A DNA stretch of 63,209 bases, counting the filler, from Licmophora abbreviata (Eukaryota), in NCBI GenBank assembly GCA_900291995.1. It is 9 parts of 9 records of this genome, joined end to end, with 100 filler letters (N's around TTAATTAATTAA, not from the genome) between each part and the next. Parts side by side here need not be neighbours in the genome. Positions count along the whole stretch, not along the records: positions 20,858 to 25,216 come from OLMU01000165.1; positions 25,317 to 42,958 come from OLMU01000166.1; 7 more parts are not named here. The stretch is one strand, 5' to 3'. The notes under the pieces were generated by a model, which did not search any database, was not told the DNA's origin, and saw nothing but the letters and a program-made list of their open reading frames with translations. Position numbers and translations under genes: made by a program. Every line of letters starts with the position of its first letter. Positions within the stretch are counted from its first letter, which is position 1. This document shows, one piece after another, positions 10,857-59,014 of this stretch.

Positions 10857-10956
10857 NNNNNNNNNNNNNNNNNNNNNNNNNNNNNNNNNNNNNNNNNNNN
10901 TTAATTAATTAANNNNNNNNNNNNNNNNNNNNNNNNNNNNNNNNNNNNNNNNNNNN
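10857..10956. other. Assembly gap with artificial linker (N44-TTAATTAATTAA-N44)
   Basis: Seen directly; an identical structure occurs at eight sites. Confidence 0.98.
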
Positions 10957-18512: not shown

Positions 18513-18612
18513 NNNNNNNNNNNNNNNNNNNNNNNNNNNNNNNNNNNNNNNNNNNNTTAATTAATTAANNNNNNNNNNNNNNNNNNNNNNNNNNNNNNNN
18601 NNNNNNNNNNNN
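18513..18612. other. Assembly gap with linker
   Basis: Ns flanking TTAATTAATTAA. Confidence 0.98.
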
Positions 18613-20757: not shown

Positions 20758-20857
20758 NNNNNNNNNNNNNNNNNNNNNNNNNNNNNNNNNNNNNNNNNNN
20801 NTTAATTAATTAANNNNNNNNNNNNNNNNNNNNNNNNNNNNNNNNNNNNNNNNNNNN
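20758..20857. other. Assembly gap; flanks overlap (20712-20757 = 20858-20903)
   Basis: 46-nt exact duplication on both sides of the linker. Confidence 0.97.
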
Positions 20858-23638: not shown

Positions 23639-24958
23639 ATGTCCCTCCAGAATCTGTCGCCGGAAGCAAAGGCGCTCAAGAGTAAGCTAGACGAGTTCGT
23701 CCGCGATGACTGCATTCCGGCCGAAGCCGAATTTGAGGAGCATATGAAGCATCGACACGGCGCCGATCGCTGGAATCAAGGCGCCATCCCCCCATGTATC
23801 GAACGCCTGAAAGCAAAAGCGCAGTCTCTGGGACTGTGGAATCTCTTTGTGCCGCCGCATCTCATGAAAGCAGTCCCCGCAGACCTGCGCCCTCCCATGC
23901 CCCTCTCCTATCGCGAGTATGGAATTCTCTGCGAGTCTATGGGGCGATCATTCCTAGCTCCTGAAGCCTGCAATTGCAGCGCTCCTGACACGGGAAACAT
24001 GGAAGTTCTCTTGCATCATGGGACCGAAGACCAGAAACGACGCTATCTCCTTCCATTGCTTCGGGGTCACATTCGATCTTGCTTTCTCATGACGGAACCA
24101 CAAGTGGCCAGTAGCGATGCGACCAATATTGAAACGACGCTTACGCGGGGTCAACATGCCACCTGTCAAAAGGTGCATTACGTGCTCAATGGAACCAAGT
24201 GGTGGAGCACGGGCGCCATGGATCCGCGCTGTGATGTGGCTTTGGTCTTGGCTCGCATGGACTACTCGCAGTGCCCTTCGGAAGCACCGAAGACGCGTCA
24301 CGGAGCCCACACGGTGGTATTGGTAGATATGAAGCAACCAGGAGTTCGAATGGCGAGACCATTGACAGTCTTTGGGTACGACGATGCTCCTCATGGACAC
24401 GCCGAAGTCGCCTTACGGAATATCCGACTTTCGCCGGAAGACCTCATTCTTGGCGAAGGCAGCGGCTTTCAGGTGGCGCAGTCGCGATTGGGACCTGGAC
24501 GCATTCACCACTGCATGCGCTCGATCGGATTGGCTGCACGTTGTTATGACCTCATGTTGGAGCGATCCATTACACGTAAGACGTTTGGAAAGTATTTATG
24601 TGAGCACGGTGGATGCCAAGAGATGATTGCCGATTCGGCCTCGGATATAGAGGCGGCGCGACTCTTGACGCTATCGTGTGCGGCCGCCATGGATGAGCAC
24701 GGTGCAGTGAAAGCGCGAGACAAAATCTCATCCATCAAGGTGTCTGTGCCGGAACTGACACATCGCGTCGTAGATCGAGCTGTGCAAATATACGGTGGAG
24801 CTGGTGTAAGCGACGACTTCCCCCTGGCGCGTGCCTTGGCGGGACTACGATCTTTGCGCATTGCGGATGGCCCCGACGCGGTTCACAAACGTACTGTGGC
24901 GCTACTAGAAATAAGGAAAGCCAAGCGAGCCAAGACCACGCTGCAAAGTCGACTATAG
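23639..24958 (+). CDS. Peroxisomal acyl-CoA dehydrogenase (ACAD10/11-like)
   Basis: NCSAPDTGNMEVL, FLMTEPQVASSDATNI, RLGPGRIHHCMR, LRIADGPD and C-terminal PTS1 -SRL. Confidence 0.93.
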   Translation: MSLQNLSPEAKALKSKLDEFVRDDCIPAEAEFEEHMKHRHGADRWNQGAIPPCIERLKAKAQSLGLWNLFVPPHLMKAVPADLRPPMPLSYREYGILCESMGRSFLAPEACNCSAPDTGNMEVLLHHGTEDQKRRYLLPLLRGHIRSCFLMTEPQVASSDATNIETTLTRGQHATCQKVHYVLNGTKWWSTGAMDPRCDVALVLARMDYSQCPSEAPKTRHGAHTVVLVDMKQPGVRMARPLTVFGYDDAPHGHAEVALRNIRLSPEDLILGEGSGFQVAQSRLGPGRIHHCMRSIGLAARCYDLMLERSITRKTFGKYLCEHGGCQEMIADSASDIEAARLLTLSCAAAMDEHGAVKARDKISSIKVSVPELTHRVVDRAVQIYGGAGVSDDFPLARALAGLRSLRIADGPDAVHKRTVALLEIRKAKRAKTTLQSRL

Positions 24959-24990: not shown

Positions 24991-27900
24991 TTAATTGAAT
25001 GCGGAAATGAACAGAAGTCGATCTTCAAAGTGTATGTTTCCGTCGTCGTCCACTCGATGCTTTTCGTCTACCTTGATACGATTGCACGCTTTCTCCAGTT
25101 CATCGTCTGAAAAGTTTGAAAACGTGCTCCAGAATCGCGACTTGACCATACCCAGCCAACAATTTAGTGGGGTCGAACATGGGTAGGCTTCGAGAGAATG
25201 AGATACACGCTTGAAGNNNNNNNNNNNNNNNNNNNNNNNNNNNNNNNNNNNNNNNNNNNNTTAATTAATTAANNNNNNNNNNNNNNNNNNNNNNNNNNNN
25301 NNNNNNNNNNNNNNNNAATGAGATACACGCTTGAAGCCAGCCGCGAGCAAATCGGACTCTATTTCATCAAGCGAAGGTTGATTGTTTGCCCACACCTGAT
25401 TTGCTTCCTTCCATAAGGGATAATCATGCTCGAGTTGTGGCCTTGTGACGATGAGAACGGCTGGACTGTGATGCGTACTATCGTCCATTGGACAAACCTC
25501 CCTTTGCATTCTTTGAAAGATTCGCTGTCGATTGCTAGCATCCAAGTGATGGACGACTTCTTTCATCAAGACTTGATGGTATCCTTGTCTCCACAAGGCA
25601 TCGCTCGGAGAAGAAAAACTCTCAGCTCCAGCCTTGACGAATCTCACTTGCTCATCGTCAACATTCCAATCGGACGAAGACTCCAAGAAAGGGTCGACCA
25701 CGACAGCCTTCACAGATGCTCGCCCTTGGACAATAAGTCGAGTAAAGTTCCCAGTTCCTCCACCAACGTCTAGTAGAGTGCGAACCTCGCGAGGGCCCGA
25801 AGACCAGCCAAGTCGTGAAACAACTAAATCAACGAGATAGGTCATGTACTTTCCTGGTGAATAGAAGAATGCCGACTCGTACGATGACGCCGAGTGCCCT
25901 TCGTAGTGAGCCTGGGTCTTTGTGTTGGAAACAGAGTCACCACTTTTCTCCAAAGTGCGGGGCTTGTGCTGTAACCAGGCTACCTTGATATCTCGATAAG
26001 GCTTCGCCCATTCGGGCATGTCGACCTCCAGTAGAAGCGCAGCCAATCTCTCGTCGATCGATCTGCCTTGCTGTCCTTTCTTGTTCATAGTTATCTCGTA
26101 GCGCAAGGCGTGTAAGCAAATGATATGTCCCGTTTCGAGCAGTTGAGCCGCCGTAAACGAAGATTCGATACCCTGTTTGCCTCCCTGACAGCATTTGCAG
26201 TTACGAATCGCACCTTGAGCGTCCGCGTCAGGCGTCTTCGATAACTGCCGGCTTGTGTCTGCTTCGAAGCAGCTTTTCGAAATAAGTCTCACCGCATCGT
26301 CCTTTCGGTTCAGCGTCAAAGGCTCTCCACCGTACTGGACGTCGCCTACGATAGGGAAGCCTAGCCATTGTAAGTGGAGACGAAGCTGGTGTCCCCGACC
26401 CGTAAGTGGACAACACGAAATTATAGAGCAGTCGGCCTCCGGATCATAAGACTGGTACTGGAAGCGACTCTTGGCTGCCTTGCCCTCTTGTGCAATAGCG
26501 CGAATTCCAATCATGGGGTCAATGGTATGTATGGGGGCATCAATCTGAAAGCATTGCATCTCATCGGCCCAGGTCCAGGCAGCGCAGTCGGATGGCGAGA
26601 AGGATGGGAAAAGATCTCTGGCAGAGTCCATTGCCTGAGGAAATCGACCCTGGGCGCAAGACACCACATAAACCATCGGTTAGAATTGAACGGCCCAAGT
26701 GAAGTGAAGAACAAAACAGCAGTAGCACTCACCTTCACAAGAGCGAGGTAAAGTTTGCGGACCATCCCCTCGTTCATTTTGCTTTGCACCAAACGAGCGG
26801 TGGCTGTGTCAGTACTGCAAATCGTGAGTCCGCTGGTGACTCGATCAATCCTGTGACAAGTGTGCAGCGAGCGAGTCCTGAAATGCTCCTGTGCTTCCAC
26901 CAGAAGGGAGAGTGCATTCGATAAATAGGGTCCCGTAGGGTACACGGGCACTGAAGCGGGTTTGTTGCAAACTACGATCCAGCTGTTGTCAGAACTAAGC
27001 CCATACTCCTCGATGACTGGTGTGGCAAGTGAATGCTTTGCACTTGAATTACAGCAGGAGTAATGACTGGTGGCTCGTGCCAATGCGTCACTCGCGAAAT
27101 AACATCCATGTTCCGAAGCTTCGTCGACATAGTTTGTTTGGTCACTTTCAGATCGTTGAGACAAAGAAGTCCTGCGCTTATAGTAGCACCAAGTGAATCA
27201 TCATCGCTGAGGCCCCAAAACTCTTGTTGAAGAACAGATACCAACGACCTTCCGTTCCATTTTCCTTTCACAGACGTTCTCAGGACTCGGACGCAAGGTG
27301 GTGGGATACGAATTCCGGTTTCTTCATCTCTGTGCTTGCTAGGACCAAGGGAAAGCTGAAGTTGCTGAATCTCGTCGATTGATTCCTCCCGCCGTCTAAT
27401 CTTTGACACTCGCTGGTTGGCGGTTCGGCGCGTTGAGCGAGATGGCGGCGCTATTGGCTCTTTACATGTTGCACTAGCAGCTGGAGCTGATGCGATTGGC
27501 AACGCTGTCGGTCGAGGTTCAAGTCGATCTTTTCGATGTAGACCATGGAATCCCCAGCAGCTGCCGGAGCAATCGACGTCGCCACAGTTTCGACAAACGA
27601 AAGCGCCGCTGCTTGACACGCTTCCACCGCTAATCGCACTAAGTCTTGCGGTGAGTCTGTCACATTGCTTTTGCAAAGTTTTCCGCTTCTGTTTGTAGCG
27701 TCGACCAACCGAGATCTTTGCAAGCTGCTGCCTCAGTTCGTCAAGCTGACGCGACAGCTCGTCTTTTCCATATTCCTCGAGATTTGTGAAATAACATGTC
27801 CGCAAGTGAAAATGATTTACACAGTGGTACTCTTGATTCTTCGGTCTACACGGGTCGCAAACAAGGGTGGGCTCTCGACAAACGGTGCATACGCAACTGG

Positions 27901-29092
27901 AATGAAATGTATCATAAGGGGTGCGGCAGTACAAACACCGACCAACAACTTCCTCGTTCACCTCCACTGCGTCAGAATTGACCGTGTATCCATCTTTTCC
28001 AATTTGTGTCTCAGCAGCACCAACAGCTCCGCGCCTATCGAACATAAAGTTCTTTCCTTTCCATAGACCTGCGTTTCCATACTCTTCGAGGTACTTGTGA
28101 ACACCTCCTTTGAGATGACCGACAGATCTTACACCGGGCACCTCTTTGCGGATATAGGCCGACGCTTTTTCGCATCGAACACCCCCAGTGCAGTACATAA
28201 GAATGCGCTTCTTGGTCAGTTCGTGTTGATGCTCCTGGACCCAGTTAGGGAACTGGGCGAACGTTGTCGTGTTTGGGTCCACAGAACGCGGGAAGTGACC
28301 AATCGCGCACTCTTTCGTGTTCCTGCAGTCGATCAGGACCGTGTCGTCCTTAAGGTTTGATATCTCCTCATGCCATTCTCGAGGCGTCAGGTACCCTCGC
28401 GAGGTTTCGAGGACAGAGATCGACGACAGGACGCCTCCAGTCGATATGATTTCGTTTACGAGTTTCACGTTCAGATCGGGGAAGACGGACTCCTCGGAGT
28501 CGCTGGACGTGGACCACTTGAAATCTTCAGGCGAGCTCATGGTGAGCTCCTGAATTCCAGCGTTGGCTGCGAATGCTTTACTCTTTGTCCAGAATTCCTC
28601 CAGGATAGATTTCACTTGCTCAGTCAAAGAATCAAAGCCATGATCTTGAACATATAGTCGCCCCAGAAATGCATAGGTGAGCGCTCGCACGTCAGTTGTT
28701 CGACCAGCCAGAGATCCATTGATTCCTTCCGCATTATCGGAGCAACCAATCAGTATTCTACCCTTGAGCTGTAGTGAGTGACACAGCGTCTCCACTGCCG
28801 TCCGATAGGGTTCCATCACATCAAATGACGACGACAGCGGATGATATTTGTAGAACAGAATGACGCTTTGAGAACGAAATTTCTCGAGACCGTTATCACA
28901 CTTCCGCATATCAGGCAGAGAGGGACCCGCCACGCCCATTTCCCGCTGAGATTGTTTCAGCATCCCGTCGTTCGTCGGGGATCGTTCGAGGCGACGAGAG
29001 AGCCTCGATGAGCGATCATGTTTTGTGGTTCCAAATTTGCAAAAGTTTGTGATGCTATTTTGGAACGCGCGTCTAGCCCGCGCGAGCGCCAT
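24991..29092 (-). CDS. Multidomain protein: TrhO/TSTD2-type rhodanese + RluA-type pseudouridine synthase + class I SAM methyltransferase; one intron, one 1-nt frameshift, spans a negative gap
   Basis: Rhodanese IDCRN...MYCTGGVRCEKAS (approx. 28170-28340). RluA HWHEPPV, NKPASVP, HRIDRVTSG, TGRGHQLRLHL, LHA. MTase LLDVGGGTGNF, KEVVHH. Frameshift near 27021, intron approx. 26732-26650, and the C-terminus continues across the overlapping gap to TAA at 24991. Confidence 0.8.
25217..25316. other. Assembly gap; flanks overlap (25197-25216 = 25317-25336)
   Basis: 20-nt exact duplication; the reading frame is continuous after merging. Confidence 0.97.
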
Positions 29093-29235: not shown

Positions 29236-29892
29236 ATGGCGTCGTTCCTGTCGTCCACGATGAGTTTCAAGATCATACTTCTTCAAACAGTTCTGTTTGC
29301 CTGTACCCGGGCTTTTGTCTTGCCCAATGCTGCCCTGGTTGCACCGTCGCGAGCTTCAGTCCACCATGCGCTTCCACTACTAGATCAGACGGCGGTATCA
29401 GATCAATTGAAAATGCTAGACGCTTCTGTTGATTCTACTTTGTCGCTGCCTTCGATCGTCGACACGAGCTCGTCGGTTTCCTCAACAATCTTGACCGCCG
29501 ACGCCTTGGATTTACTGAGGAACTTTTTTATTATAATCGGCGGCATTGTCGCGGTTCTGGCAGTTGGCGCGATTGCGTTCTCTGCTTGGATCGTCCCGCA
29601 GGCGGCAGCCGAACTCGAAAAGCAGATCAAGGAACGCGATCCTGCTTTGTGGGAGGAGTATCAAGACAAGCTTGAAGAAGGTGAAGTACTGGCCATGCGC
29701 CCAGAACTGATGCAAGAGTTGGGTGACAGGTATCAGAAGATGGTGATGGAGGAGTTTGACGCACAGGAAATGGCTACGGCTAAAGAGACGAGCGCCAAGA
29801 CGAGCCGCACCGGTGGAACGGTGACCTCTCCAAGCACAAATAACAAGGCCGTCCTAGATGCAGAGATTGTGGACTCAGACAAAGATGACTAG
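29236..29892 (+). CDS. Hypothetical plastid-targeted single-pass membrane protein
   Basis: Signal peptide ending TRA-FV, a Ser-rich transit-like region, one TM helix, and a conserved-looking tail 'QIKERDPALWEEYQDKLEEGEVLAMRPELMQELG'. Confidence 0.75.
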   Translation: MASFLSSTMSFKIILLQTVLFACTRAFVLPNAALVAPSRASVHHALPLLDQTAVSDQLKMLDASVDSTLSLPSIVDTSSSVSSTILTADALDLLRNFFIIIGGIVAVLAVGAIAFSAWIVPQAAAELEKQIKERDPALWEEYQDKLEEGEVLAMRPELMQELGDRYQKMVMEEFDAQEMATAKETSAKTSRTGGTVTSPSTNNKAVLDAEIVDSDKDD

Positions 29893-29974: not shown

Positions 29975-30550
29975 TCAATACAACTGTCCTTTCGCTCGGA
30001 CAATCTCCCGAAGCATAAAGTGCTTGTGTTTACTGATACGATGACAAGGAGTGATCATGACGAGATCACCCATTTTCGCAACTTCGTTTTCGTCGTGCGC
30101 CATGAACTTTCTCGTGTATTTGAGGCGCTTTCGATACTTTGGGACCATCCGATAACGATCCACTGCCACATTAACAGTTTTATCCATCTTGTCACTCACA
30201 ACTTTTCCAACCAGCACGCCTCTGGGAATGCCGCCAGGAGGCGAATGAATGAACTCCCATCCCGGTATCGTGGAGGTATCTGCAAGCTCCTCGTTGGTCA
30301 TCGACGAAAAATCCTTGGGCTCTGCAGCCATCTCTTCAGGCGCGGTTTCTTTTAAAAGTTGCGACACTGAGTCTTCCGTCGATAGTAGGCGAATAGACTG
30401 ACACGCGTTTGCAAGCTGGCTAGAGTGCACCAAACGAGCATTTGCTGCTGAATTCAAGCCGTGACCATCACTATCAGAGAAGGTGGCAACAACTTTGGAA
30501 GCTCGAGGGAAACGTAATCTCGGGCCGAACCTGCTCAAAGACGACATCAT
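29975..30550 (-). CDS. MRPS17: Mitochondrial ribosomal protein uS17
   Basis: GKVVSDKMDKTVNV...KFMAHDE...GDLV.I..CHRISKHK, preceded by a mitochondrial-type presequence. Confidence 0.9.
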   Translation of the reverse strand: MMSSLSRFGPRLRFPRASKVVATFSDSDGHGLNSAANARLVHSSQLANACQSIRLLSTEDSVSQLLKETAPEEMAAEPKDFSSMTNEELADTSTIPGWEFIHSPPGGIPRGVLVGKVVSDKMDKTVNVAVDRYRMVPKYRKRLKYTRKFMAHDENEVAKMGDLVMITPCHRISKHKHFMLREIVRAKGQLY

Positions 30551-57600: not shown

Positions 57601-59014
57601 TCATTTCTCTCATGTTTTTCACTCCCGATGCAATCCACTCATCGACTCGGTCTTCATAGTCACACTCCTGCAAGTCGTCGAGAGACTGCCTCGATGACAC
57701 GTAGGAAACCCGTCGTCGCGATTTAGGCTTGGACCGACCAATCATCTCCTTCATGTGAGTNNNNNNNNNNNNNNNNNNNNNNNNNNNNNNNNNNNNNNNN
57801 NNNNTTAATTAATTAANNNNNNNNNNNNNNNNNNNNNNNNNNNNNNNNNNNNNNNNNNNNCGACCAATCATCTCCTTCATGTGAGTCTGTCGAGGCGTAT
57901 TTGTACTGTCTTCGCGTGGAAGCTCGCTGGATCGACCGGATTGTCGTCGTGCGCGTCGCCCTTCTCGCTGGCATTGATCAATGTGCCTGGACAGTATAGC
58001 GTCGCCATCTGCACTCGTCTCCACCGGAATTCTCGCATTGCATAACGGGCACTCCAAGGTCTCTTCGACTACCGCCGATGCCGCTAGAGATTGCTCCTCC
58101 AGCTGAGTAGGAATAAGTTGTTGGTCCACACCCCCCTCGTCGTCGAACGTCAATTCATGTTCATCATCGTCATCGGAGGATTCAACCCACTGTTCCCTTC
58201 GTTTTCGTTGCAACGCTTGCCGTTCCTTTCGTTTTCGTCGCAGGAGATCCTTTCGTTCTGTCTGGTCCTCATCCAGTTTGTCACTAGCTGCCAACCTCTT
58301 TTGCTGCATCATGGTGCCTCTCGCCCGTGCGGACCTTGTTTGCTTTTGCTCGGAAAGAGCCTGCTTTCCAAAGGAGGACGTGGACGAAGCGGAAACGACA
58401 GAGCGAGCTAAAGTGCCGTCTTGTTTGATGGCTTCGAGACGCTCGGAAGCTGATTGAGGTATCAACCTCGCAGTCGCACGCTTCTTGTTGCTGGGGCCGT
58501 CGACAGTAGTAGAATCATAGTAGTCGGTGGCGGCATCAGTGTCGATGGAAGCCACAGTCGTGGATGTGAGCATTCGTCGCGACCGCTTTCGCTCTAATTG
58601 CTCCTCTCTAGCCTGGTCGACTGGCATATCTTCAGGAGTCAGACCAGCGACCTTCTGTAGATACACCAGAAGCATTTGTTCCTTGAGTCGAAGTAGCAAT
58701 GAGTCGTGCGTCTCCGCTGTTGAATTCCGGCCCAATTCGGAACGTAGTCGCGCCAAAACCGTCGTGACGGTAGGAACATCCACCGCACCACTGGAAAGTC
58801 CCCGTCGCATATCATAGGAAGGGCCCAGTGGTGCTAGATCAGGAAAACCTACCCCAGTCAGGAGGGGCGCCGACTGCAGCGTTGCCTCACGAATGACGGA
58901 ACTCTCGTACGAAGCCATGGGCGTGATTCTGGACCCCATGGACTTCAGAATCTCCTCTGTCTCGTCCACGTTCGTCATGACCTTTGGCATCGGAGGCTTT
59001 CTAGAGGACTCCAT
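54636..59014 (-). CDS. ERCC6: ERCC6/CSB (Rad26) SNF2 helicase with UBZ-type zinc finger; several introns, two gaps and a homopolymer frameshift
   Basis: [79 protein letters not shown]...HIDQC and a winged-helix-like end. Confidence 0.93.
56464..56563. other. Assembly gap inside ERCC6
   Basis: Ns with linker; the flanking protein sequence suggests only a few codons are missing. Confidence 0.95.
57761..57860. other. Assembly gap; flanks overlap (57735-57760 = 57861-57886)
   Basis: 26-nt exact duplication; the ERCC6 frame is continuous after merging. Confidence 0.97.

Follow-up and report, generated by a model that had tools for sequence, protein, structure and literature searches.

A TrhO-type hydroxylase fused to an RluA-family pseudouridine synthase in diatoms, with a probable third, methyltransferase domain in Licmophora abbreviata

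The genome of the diatom Licmophora abbreviata contains a gene in which a TrhO-type tRNA uridine hydroxylase is fused to an RluA-family pseudouridine synthase, and which probably continues into a class I S-adenosylmethionine (SAM) methyltransferase. The window analysed here is a stretch of 63,209 nucleotides, filler included, in which parts of nine records of assembly GCA_900291995.1 are joined end to end. The TrhO-RluA part of the gene is shared with diatoms across the pennate and centric groups, which argues, as far as sequence comparison can tell, for a conserved diatom protein in which the two enzymes are functionally coupled. The methyltransferase follows in the same frame and, among the sequences examined, appears in this form in Licmophora only.

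Layout of the fusion gene

The gene lies on the minus strand and consists of four open pieces. Joined, they give a single frame of about 1,299 codons, or some 3.9 kb of coding sequence. A preliminary description of this stretch had proposed a single protein of roughly 1,300 residues, reached through one missing base, one GT-AG intron and a 20-nucleotide contig overlap. The protein is borne out by the coordinates below, and each of the three joins can be located in the sequence. The domain matches go far past what chance would produce.

29092-24991, minus strand: fusion gene, with ATG at 29092-29090 and stop at 24993-24991; four open pieces
29092-26975, minus strand: piece 1, frame A, 706 codons; CTGGVRCE at 28192-28169, HWHEPPV at 27085-27065
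27023..29092, minus strand: coding part of frame A, residues 1-690 (basic extension, TrhO module, basic inter-domain region, RluA start)
28448..28867, minus strand: UPF0176_N (acylphosphatase-like), residues 76-215; PF17773, 39.7 bits against a cut-off of 26.2
28085..28357, minus strand: Rhodanese, residues 246-336, with loop CTGGVRCE; PF00581, 34 bits against 22.2
27818..28060, minus strand: Rhodanese_C, rich in Cys and His, residues 345-425; PF12368, 40.5 bits against 26.9
27023..27802, minus strand: inter-domain and pre-catalytic region, residues 431-690, from AlphaFold model and alignment
27021..27022, minus strand: frameshift site, two orphan bases CA between ..CCA of frame A and CCA GTC.. 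of frame B
26733..27020, minus strand: piece 2, frame B, 96 codons; RluA catalytic core, HRID at 26855-26844
26650..26732, minus strand: GT-AG intron, 83 nucleotides, phase 0; GT at 26732-26731, AG at 26651-26650
26649-25318, minus strand: piece 3, 444 codons; RluA end, linker and methyltransferase start
25969..26649, minus strand: C-terminal half of RluA, piece 3 residues 1-227, ending in WLQ at 25977-25969; TIGR00005, E 5e-19
25912..25968, minus strand: linker between RluA and methyltransferase, 19 residues, no stop and no Met; relatives have a stop codon here
25317..25911, minus strand: N-terminal three quarters of the methyltransferase; AHYEG at 25911, DVGGGTG at 25770-25750
25217..25316, no strand: scaffold join, N44 + TTAATTAATTAA + N44, 100 bases
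25215-24994, minus strand (24991..25216 as a part, including the stop): piece 4, methyltransferase tail, 74 residues

At the frameshift site, homology runs in frame A through HWHEPPV to ...HLP and resumes in frame B with PVIEEY. In the closest relatives, LP and VI are separated here by exactly two residues, so one base is missing at 27021-27022. An intron as the cause of the change of frame is ruled out, as the homologies in both frames lie only two bases apart. Further downstream, removal of the 83-nucleotide intron yields LALVK/GRFPQ, and VKGRFP is also found in the relative P0007. At the scaffold join, the 20 bases at 25197-25216 are identical to those at 25317-25336, and the first six of the 74 tail residues duplicate the end of piece 3. 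Relatives of the methyltransferase align across the join (residue 782 of P0008 corresponds to the end of piece 3 and residue 777 to the start of piece 4), and the tail corresponds to the very C-terminal ends of the listed family members, including P0008 and P0012.

The motifs CTGGVRCE, HRID and DVGGGTG are all intact, and both fusion junctions can be read in open frames that need no correction, as the preliminary description had maintained. The protein opens with 72 residues of high isoelectric point (pI 10.8) that have no counterpart in the relatives, whose alignments begin at residue 66-183 and mostly at about 73-77. This basic stretch may be a targeting sequence, or the start codon may be mis-set.

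The N-terminal module belongs to the TrhO family

The three Pfam domains of the N-terminal module stand in the order UPF0176_N, Rhodanese and Rhodanese_C that the TrhO/UPF0176/YceA family requires, each above its Pfam cut-off. The NCBIfam equivalog model for TrhO (NF001133) scores 184.5 bits against a cut-off of 170, and among solved structures piece 1 finds 9j5o (tRNA uridine(34) hydroxylase, E 2e-29) and 4f67 (E about 1e-29). These results confirm the assignment to TrhO. The loop CTGGVRCE corresponds to residues 301-308, in which C301, T302, G303, G304, R306 and C307 are invariant in an alignment of 27 sequences; the Cys and His columns of Rhodanese_C are invariant in the same alignment. In the CTGGIR loop of E. 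coli TrhO, C200, T201, G203 and R205 are essential (Sakai 2019, PMC6599085, in the part available to us). All four of these residues (the C, the T, the second G and the R) are present in the window's module.

The window protein thus shares its three domains and the essential CTGGxR residues with the oxygen-dependent bacterial TrhO enzymes (YceA of E. coli, YbfQ of B. subtilis). Unlike these, it is eukaryotic, and its TrhO part is the first, N-terminal module in a protein about 930-1,300 residues long. Its UPF0176_N domain also contains an insertion, with 140 residues for a profile of 92 positions. Among eukaryotic TrhO orthologues, human TSTD2 likewise has UPF0176 and rhodanese domains, but it lacks a fusion to a pseudouridine synthase. 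The available part of a 2023 review states that information on the function of TSTD2 is lacking (PMC10135228).

A conserved basic region leads into an RluA-family synthase

Between the TrhO module and the catalytic core of the synthase lie, in this order, a helical hairpin, a cysteine cluster with the pattern CRNCGx3CxGxCWGFHGL (27595-27548), a basic disordered stretch and a compact alpha/beta domain that ends in HWHEPPV. The AlphaFold model of this region has a mean predicted local distance difference test (pLDDT) score of 83, with residues 85-114 of the modelled part below 50. Residues 431-660 carry a net charge of +16 (pI 9.8). In the alignment of 27 sequences, the cysteine cluster and many columns of the linker are invariant. 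Together, these features are those of an old, integrated protein and not of an accident. A fold search with the model mostly returned generic helical hairpins (similar to ribosomal L29, Z 8-9), and the alpha/beta domain gave a single poor match (6yxx_EC, Z 8.5, root-mean-square deviation (rmsd) 8.0).

The synthase itself is split by the intron. PF00849 (PseudoU_synth_2) matches piece 2 with 48.9 bits against a cut-off of 26.8 over profile positions 2-82, and piece 3 with 20.4 bits over positions 108-151, while the RluA subfamily model TIGR00005 matches piece 2 (E 1.5e-15) as well as piece 3. HRID corresponds to the HRxD motif with the catalytic Asp, and conservation in its H, R and D columns is 90% or higher. 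The proposed membership of the RluA family therefore holds on all three grounds: PF00849, TIGR00005 and HRxD.

Within the family the placement is less sharp. The RluA model reaches 17.7 and 29.4 bits against an equivalog cut-off of 286, and the RluC model 27.2 and 34 bits against 378; among solved structures, RluC (5e-16) ranks ahead of RluA (1e-11) and RPUSD4 (3e-8). As leads only, the relative P0202 is named 'tRNA pseudouridine32 synthase' by its JGI source, and the Atlas neighbours of the RluA part include clusters called 'RNA pseudouridine synthase 7-like' and 'DRAP deaminase'. A specificity for pseudouridine 32, and a place in the group of Pus8, Pus9 and plant PUS7-like enzymes, would be a guess from that one automatic name and the Atlas cluster names. 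As a comparison group we take yeast Pus8 and Pus9, human RPUSD2 and plant RNA pseudouridine synthase 7, names that derive in part from the Atlas clusters. The window's synthase resembles them in a PF00849 core with the Asp of HRxD, in H(W/R)HEPPV before the core and in a compact alpha/beta domain upstream of it. It differs from them in being fused behind TrhO.

The TrhO-RluA fusion is conserved in diatoms

A search among proteins of similar length gave 275 matches at E<=1e-10. Nearly all of the best 120 of these combine a TrhO-type module with PF00849, which is missing from the shortest entries; a search among longer proteins gave six fused relatives. The fusion occurs in pennate and centric diatoms alike, among them Cylindrotheca, Amphora, Pseudo-nitzschia, Nitzschia, Epithemia, Seminavis, Thalassiosira, Skeletonema and Cyclotella. 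Three of the relatives (P0013, P0216 and P0235) are MMETSP transcripts that are marked complete and carry TrhO-RluA, and in relatives both enzymes are therefore encoded on one mRNA. The best TrhO-RluA relative among the matches listed is 59% identical to the window protein, so the organism itself is absent from them.

We compared 128 proteins with the window protein. Piece 3 is matched by 105 of them, and in 101 the alignment extends as far as residue 190 of this piece. Of the latter, 99 are TrhO-RluA proteins, whose alignment to piece 3 ends at residue 195-243, with 0-71 residues left beyond it; the remaining two, P0008 and P0012, have the methyltransferase but neither of the other two enzymes. 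The TrhO-RluA fusion is present in every one of the 99 relatives with a complete RluA end. Of the three-enzyme protein in the preliminary description, these relatives keep the first two enzymes and not the methyltransferase (0 of 99).

We found no description of a TrhO-pseudouridine synthase fusion in the literature, a search that did not extend to the supplementary lists of eukaryotic trhO carriers in Sakai 2019, and the fusion thus appears to be undescribed so far. A scan of metagenome loci with the TrhO-RluA alignment produced no diatom loci among the 80 drawn. These loci, picked up through the pattern CTGGIRCE at 26-43% identity, are apparently bacterial TrhO genes. A tblastn search of the RluA and methyltransferase pieces against the same 80 loci, a weak test, gave nothing at E<=1e-4.

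One of the relatives, P0001 from Nitzschia sp. Nitz4 (1586 residues), has an additional domain ahead of TrhO, an adenylate/guanylate cyclase (PF00211, E 2e-34). Either a further fusion arose in that lineage, or two gene models have been merged.

The third domain is a class I methyltransferase of a mostly free-standing family

The C-terminal domain has the features of a class I SAM methyltransferase, with DVGGGTG as motif I and, in VVVDPF, the acidic residue after strand 2. D53, G55 and G57 are invariant in 39 sequences of the family, whose first conserved motif (HY..H..SYE) marks the start of the domain in the window. PF13489 (Methyltransf_23) scores 26.6 bits on piece 3, where the tail is missing, against a cut-off of 27, and passes this cut-off in the relatives P0015 and P0035 (30.7 and 32.1 bits). 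The window's domain reaches no Pfam or NCBIfam family cut-off (no NCBIfam model even approaches its own), and its Pfam matches are generic. No CmoB, TrmR or CmoM model is listed for it at E<=1, where the presence of TrmR and CmoM in the libraries is unconfirmed. The library does contain a CmoB model, which scored 18.8 bits on a distant relative from a choanoflagellate, where the cut-off is 209.

The methyltransferase part, compared in a full scan with 1.84 billion representatives, matched 268 of them at E<=0.001. The best 150 of the 268 are mostly free-standing proteins of 250-440 residues, and none of these 150 contains RluA or TrhO sequence. Free-standing members include P0017 from the centric diatom Helicotheca tamesis (a complete transcript, 272 residues), a Thalassiosira exigua protein and a choanoflagellate protein. 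The family is acidic, with a median pI of 5.5 and only one of 38 members above 8.

A profile search of the PDB gave generic matches: MM_2633 (5e-10), Hen1 (6e-8) and phosphoethanolamine and natural-product methyltransferases. The structure model of P0017 (pLDDT 93.4) matched class I enzymes at Z up to 17.3. Foldseek placed it near OxaG, a Methanosarcina methyltransferase, JHAMT and histamine N-methyltransferase (E about 1e-10), and in exhaustive structural alignment 3ege, OxaG, TTHA0223, HvrF and TmtA led at Z 16.5-17.3. METTL6 was the first RNA methyltransferase in this ranking (Z 15.2), and CmoA stood at Z 13.8, tied with many others. TrmR, CmoB and CmoM, which act in the formation of 5-hydroxyuridine (ho5U) derivatives and uridine 5-oxyacetic acid (cmo5U), are absent from the top 50 rows of both fold searches. 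The best fold neighbours of the modelled relative are thus small-molecule methyltransferases, the very grouping that the preliminary description had named as speaking against its model, although a fold neighbour does not fix the substrate. Over 221-239 residues, the P0017 model superposes on the small-molecule enzymes with a C-terminal lid (3ege, OxaG 5w7k, TTHA0223 2yqz, HvrF 9e72 and TmtA 5egp) with an rmsd of 3.2-3.7. Identity to them is 10-16%, and the window's family differs in having its own invariant HH and TRP..P motifs.

In six distant members (P0093, P0096, P0102, P0114, P0120 and P0122; 32-37% identity) the methyltransferase is joined to a PhyH-type Fe/2-oxoglutarate dioxygenase, and one of the six is named a halogenase by its source. 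These fusions hint at a small-molecule chemistry in the wider family. Two proteins from other diatom assemblies carry the methyltransferase at the C-terminus of unrelated parts: P0008 (850 residues) behind the DBR1 lariat-debranching enzyme, and P0012 (957 residues) behind a Cys-rich N-terminus of 640 residues. Either the methyltransferase has repeatedly been fused at C-termini, or these are merged gene models.

Assembly quality and the reality of the third fusion

The window contains eight identical contig joins, each of the form N44 + TTAATTAATTAA + N44:

10857-10956, 18513-18612, 20758-20857, 25217-25316: contig joins
42959-43058, 56464-56563, 57761-57860, 61898-61997: contig joins

Exact, unmerged overlaps flank two of them, of 20 nucleotides at 25217-25316 and of 26 nucleotides at 57761-57860, and about 34 bases recur, at an offset, on the two sides of the join at 20758-20857. 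The scaffold is built, as a pseudomolecule, from the short contigs of a draft assembly. In four public DNA runs, only 11 short contigs (151-219 letters) match the locus, at 99-100% likeness. None of the 11 spans the frameshift site, the intron or the RluA-methyltransferase junction, and the four runs give no cover at 25958-26341. Contig X1 record 4 (depth 4) fits 26874-27020 free of mismatches, and its last four letters stay unaligned at the position of the missing base, a weak hint of a difference there. Contig X2 record 7 extends 128 letters beyond 25318 into the scaffold gap. The base missing at 27021-27022 may be an allelic fault or one of the draft assembly; alternatively, a mutation may have inactivated the gene very recently.

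The junction between RluA and the methyltransferase lies inside continuous sequence, away from the contig joins. RluA homology continues to the last motif of its family and methyltransferase homology begins with the first of its own, where H6 and Y7 of the free-standing P0017 are the first conserved residues of the family alignment. The 19 residues in between stay in the same frame and contain neither a stop nor a Met; there is therefore no room for two adjacent genes. A possible 72-nucleotide GT...AG segment at the junction (about 25983-25912) was considered; by our reading it leaves the frame open whether it is spliced or not, and the fusion is unaffected. From the sequence, we consider it probable that the methyltransferase is truly fused to TrhO-RluA in this genome.

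An artefact would mean that an ordinary TrhO-RluA gene and a separate methyltransferase gene were brought together by a mis-join, or that a small error removed a stop codon and so mimics a fusion. A pseudomolecule with eight joins of N's and linker in 63 kb and unmerged overlaps of 20 and 26 nucleotides invites this suspicion, as do the frame error already present within the same gene and the fact that the fusion is unique among all sequences examined. However, the junction does not coincide with a contig join, both domains are complete and share strand and frame at a distance of 19 residues, and the lack of a Met before the first methyltransferase motif leaves no space for a terminator, a promoter or a start. 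A random chimera would seldom yield such a junction, and we regard an artefact as unlikely.

The locus could also be a decaying copy, in which a real frameshift truncates the protein after TrhO, the C-terminal fusion reflects lost constraint, and a working copy perhaps exists elsewhere. The frameshift at 27021-27022 indeed has no intron alternative, the architecture is unique, and with the best relative at only 59% identity nothing close is at hand for comparison. Against decay, a single lesion is found in about 3.9 kb of coding sequence, catalytic motifs and family-invariant columns are kept in every piece, and the intron is canonical (GT-AG, phase 0). We therefore think it improbable that the gene is a relic.

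Proposed function and relation to earlier work

The explanation that fits best overall, and towards which we lean with some reserve, is that this nuclear gene, of a type found in diatoms, encodes a conserved two-enzyme RNA modifier and has gained a lineage-specific third domain. From N- to C-terminus, the modifier would consist of the TrhO-type module, the basic linker with its helical hairpin and Cys cluster, the alpha/beta domain and the RluA-family synthase. Each of the two catalytic modules would have its own uridine in a shared RNA, because one residue cannot be both a uridine hydroxylated at C5 and a pseudouridine. As U34 is the site of action of bacterial TrhO, the most plausible substrate would be the anticodon stem-loop of a tRNA, with hydroxylation of U34 and pseudouridylation nearby; RNA binding would come from the basic linker. 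In this genome alone, the usual stop after WLQ would have been lost, and a linker of 19 residues would then read into a complete class I methyltransferase. The third domain would thus be a recent, lineage-specific gene fusion, and nothing ties the methyltransferase to ho5U.

Several points weigh against this explanation. The assembly is a draft with its eight contig joins in 63 kb and unmerged overlaps, and the gene is frameshifted as written. The third domain is found on none of the 99 TrhO-RluA relatives with a complete RluA end, and its fusion is unique among the sequences examined, the best 150 of the 268 methyltransferases lacking RluA and TrhO. The substrate proposed here rests on bacterial TrhO only, and RluC, an rRNA enzyme, outscores RluA among solved structures, so that a target at tRNA position 32 is not established. 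Finally, two residues of a basic beta-sheet of E. coli TrhO (K112 and R114) are needed for activity according to the available part of Sakai 2019 (PMC6599085). Alignment to Lpg2838 sets VKLVNEII of the window protein against VKLRKEIV, in which the Lys is kept and the Arg position is apparently Val. If the numbering transfers in this way, one of the two basic residues of the bacterial enzymes appears to be replaced in the window protein.

TrhO and a methyltransferase have been found together before. In the part of Sakai 2019 available to us (PMC6599085), TrhO-TrmR fusions are listed for Phytophthora sojae, P. ramorum and Phaeodactylum tricornutum and serve as a clue that TrhO makes ho5U; the eukaryotic trhO homologues are taken there to suggest modifications of the 5-oxyuridine (xo5U) type in eukaryotes. 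The coupling of a stramenopile TrhO to a methyltransferase is thus already known from this source, and a dedicated ho5U methylase exists elsewhere in diatoms. The preliminary description had held that such chemistry is not established in eukaryotes, which agrees with the same part of Sakai 2019, where it is suggested and not shown. By description, the TrhO-TrmR fusions resemble the window's gene in joining a stramenopile TrhO homologue to a second tRNA-modification enzyme. They differ in that TrmR is a known ho5U O-methyltransferase, whereas the conserved partner in the window is of the RluA family and the extra methyltransferase comes from another family.

The preliminary description had gone further and proposed a single-chain, three-step modifier of the anticodon loop, in which RluA would make pseudouridine 32, TrhO would make ho5U34 and the methyltransferase would convert ho5U to 5-methoxyuridine (mo5U). 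Three intact catalytic motifs in one frame, the stramenopile precedent of TrhO-TrmR in Phytophthora and Phaeodactylum (available part of Sakai 2019, PMC6599085), the JGI name of P0202 and, as leads, the two Atlas clusters near the RluA part are consistent with it. Its last step finds no support, however: the methyltransferase is carried by 0 of the 99 relatives and belongs to a mostly stand-alone, acidic family (median pI 5.5), no Pfam or NCBIfam cut-off is reached and the CmoB model is unmatched at E<=1. Small-molecule enzymes lead the fold ranking at Z 16.5-17.3, with METTL6 only at Z 15.2, and the same methyltransferase stands behind unrelated parts in two diatoms (DBR1 in P0008 and the Cys-rich part in P0012). 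In addition, if diatoms already have TrhO-TrmR, as the available part of that study reports, the mo5U step has a dedicated enzyme. We consider the three-step modifier very unlikely. Equally doubtful is the wider picture in which diatoms carry out a eukaryotic wobble chemistry of the xo5U type on fused enzymes and, in this lineage, an unrelated class I methyltransferase was recruited onto the TrhO-RluA protein. If true, the result would be a single chain that modifies one RNA loop in three steps, with a way of methylating ho5U, or a base next to it, that is independent of TrmR.

The two-enzyme modifier that we favour matters mainly for TrhO. TrhO homologues, including human TSTD2, are widespread in eukaryotes and have no established eukaryotic substrate or product in the parts of the literature available to us. 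A fusion kept in centric and pennate diatoms would suggest that eukaryotic TrhO acts on an RNA next to a pseudouridylation site, and TrhO-RluA may thus be a tractable system for finding this RNA. Phaeodactylum, Thalassiosira and Cyclotella can be transformed. The third domain, if real, would amount to an enzyme-fusion experiment performed by nature; as the evidence now stands, it adds little.

Neighbouring genes

The fusion gene is flanked by other genes on both sides. An intact acyl-CoA dehydrogenase gene (23639-24955, plus strand), with all three Pfam domains and E values down to 2e-36, converges with the fusion gene, and the two stop codons lie about 35 bases apart. On the other side, an open reading frame of 218 codons (29236-29889, plus strand; no Pfam match at E<=0.001) is divergent from the fusion gene. 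Its start lies about 145 bases from the ATG of the fusion gene, and the two may share a short promoter region. Beyond it, a homologue of ribosomal protein S17 (29978-30550, minus strand; PF00366, E 1.7e-25) carries an extension of about 114 residues before the domain and may be organellar.

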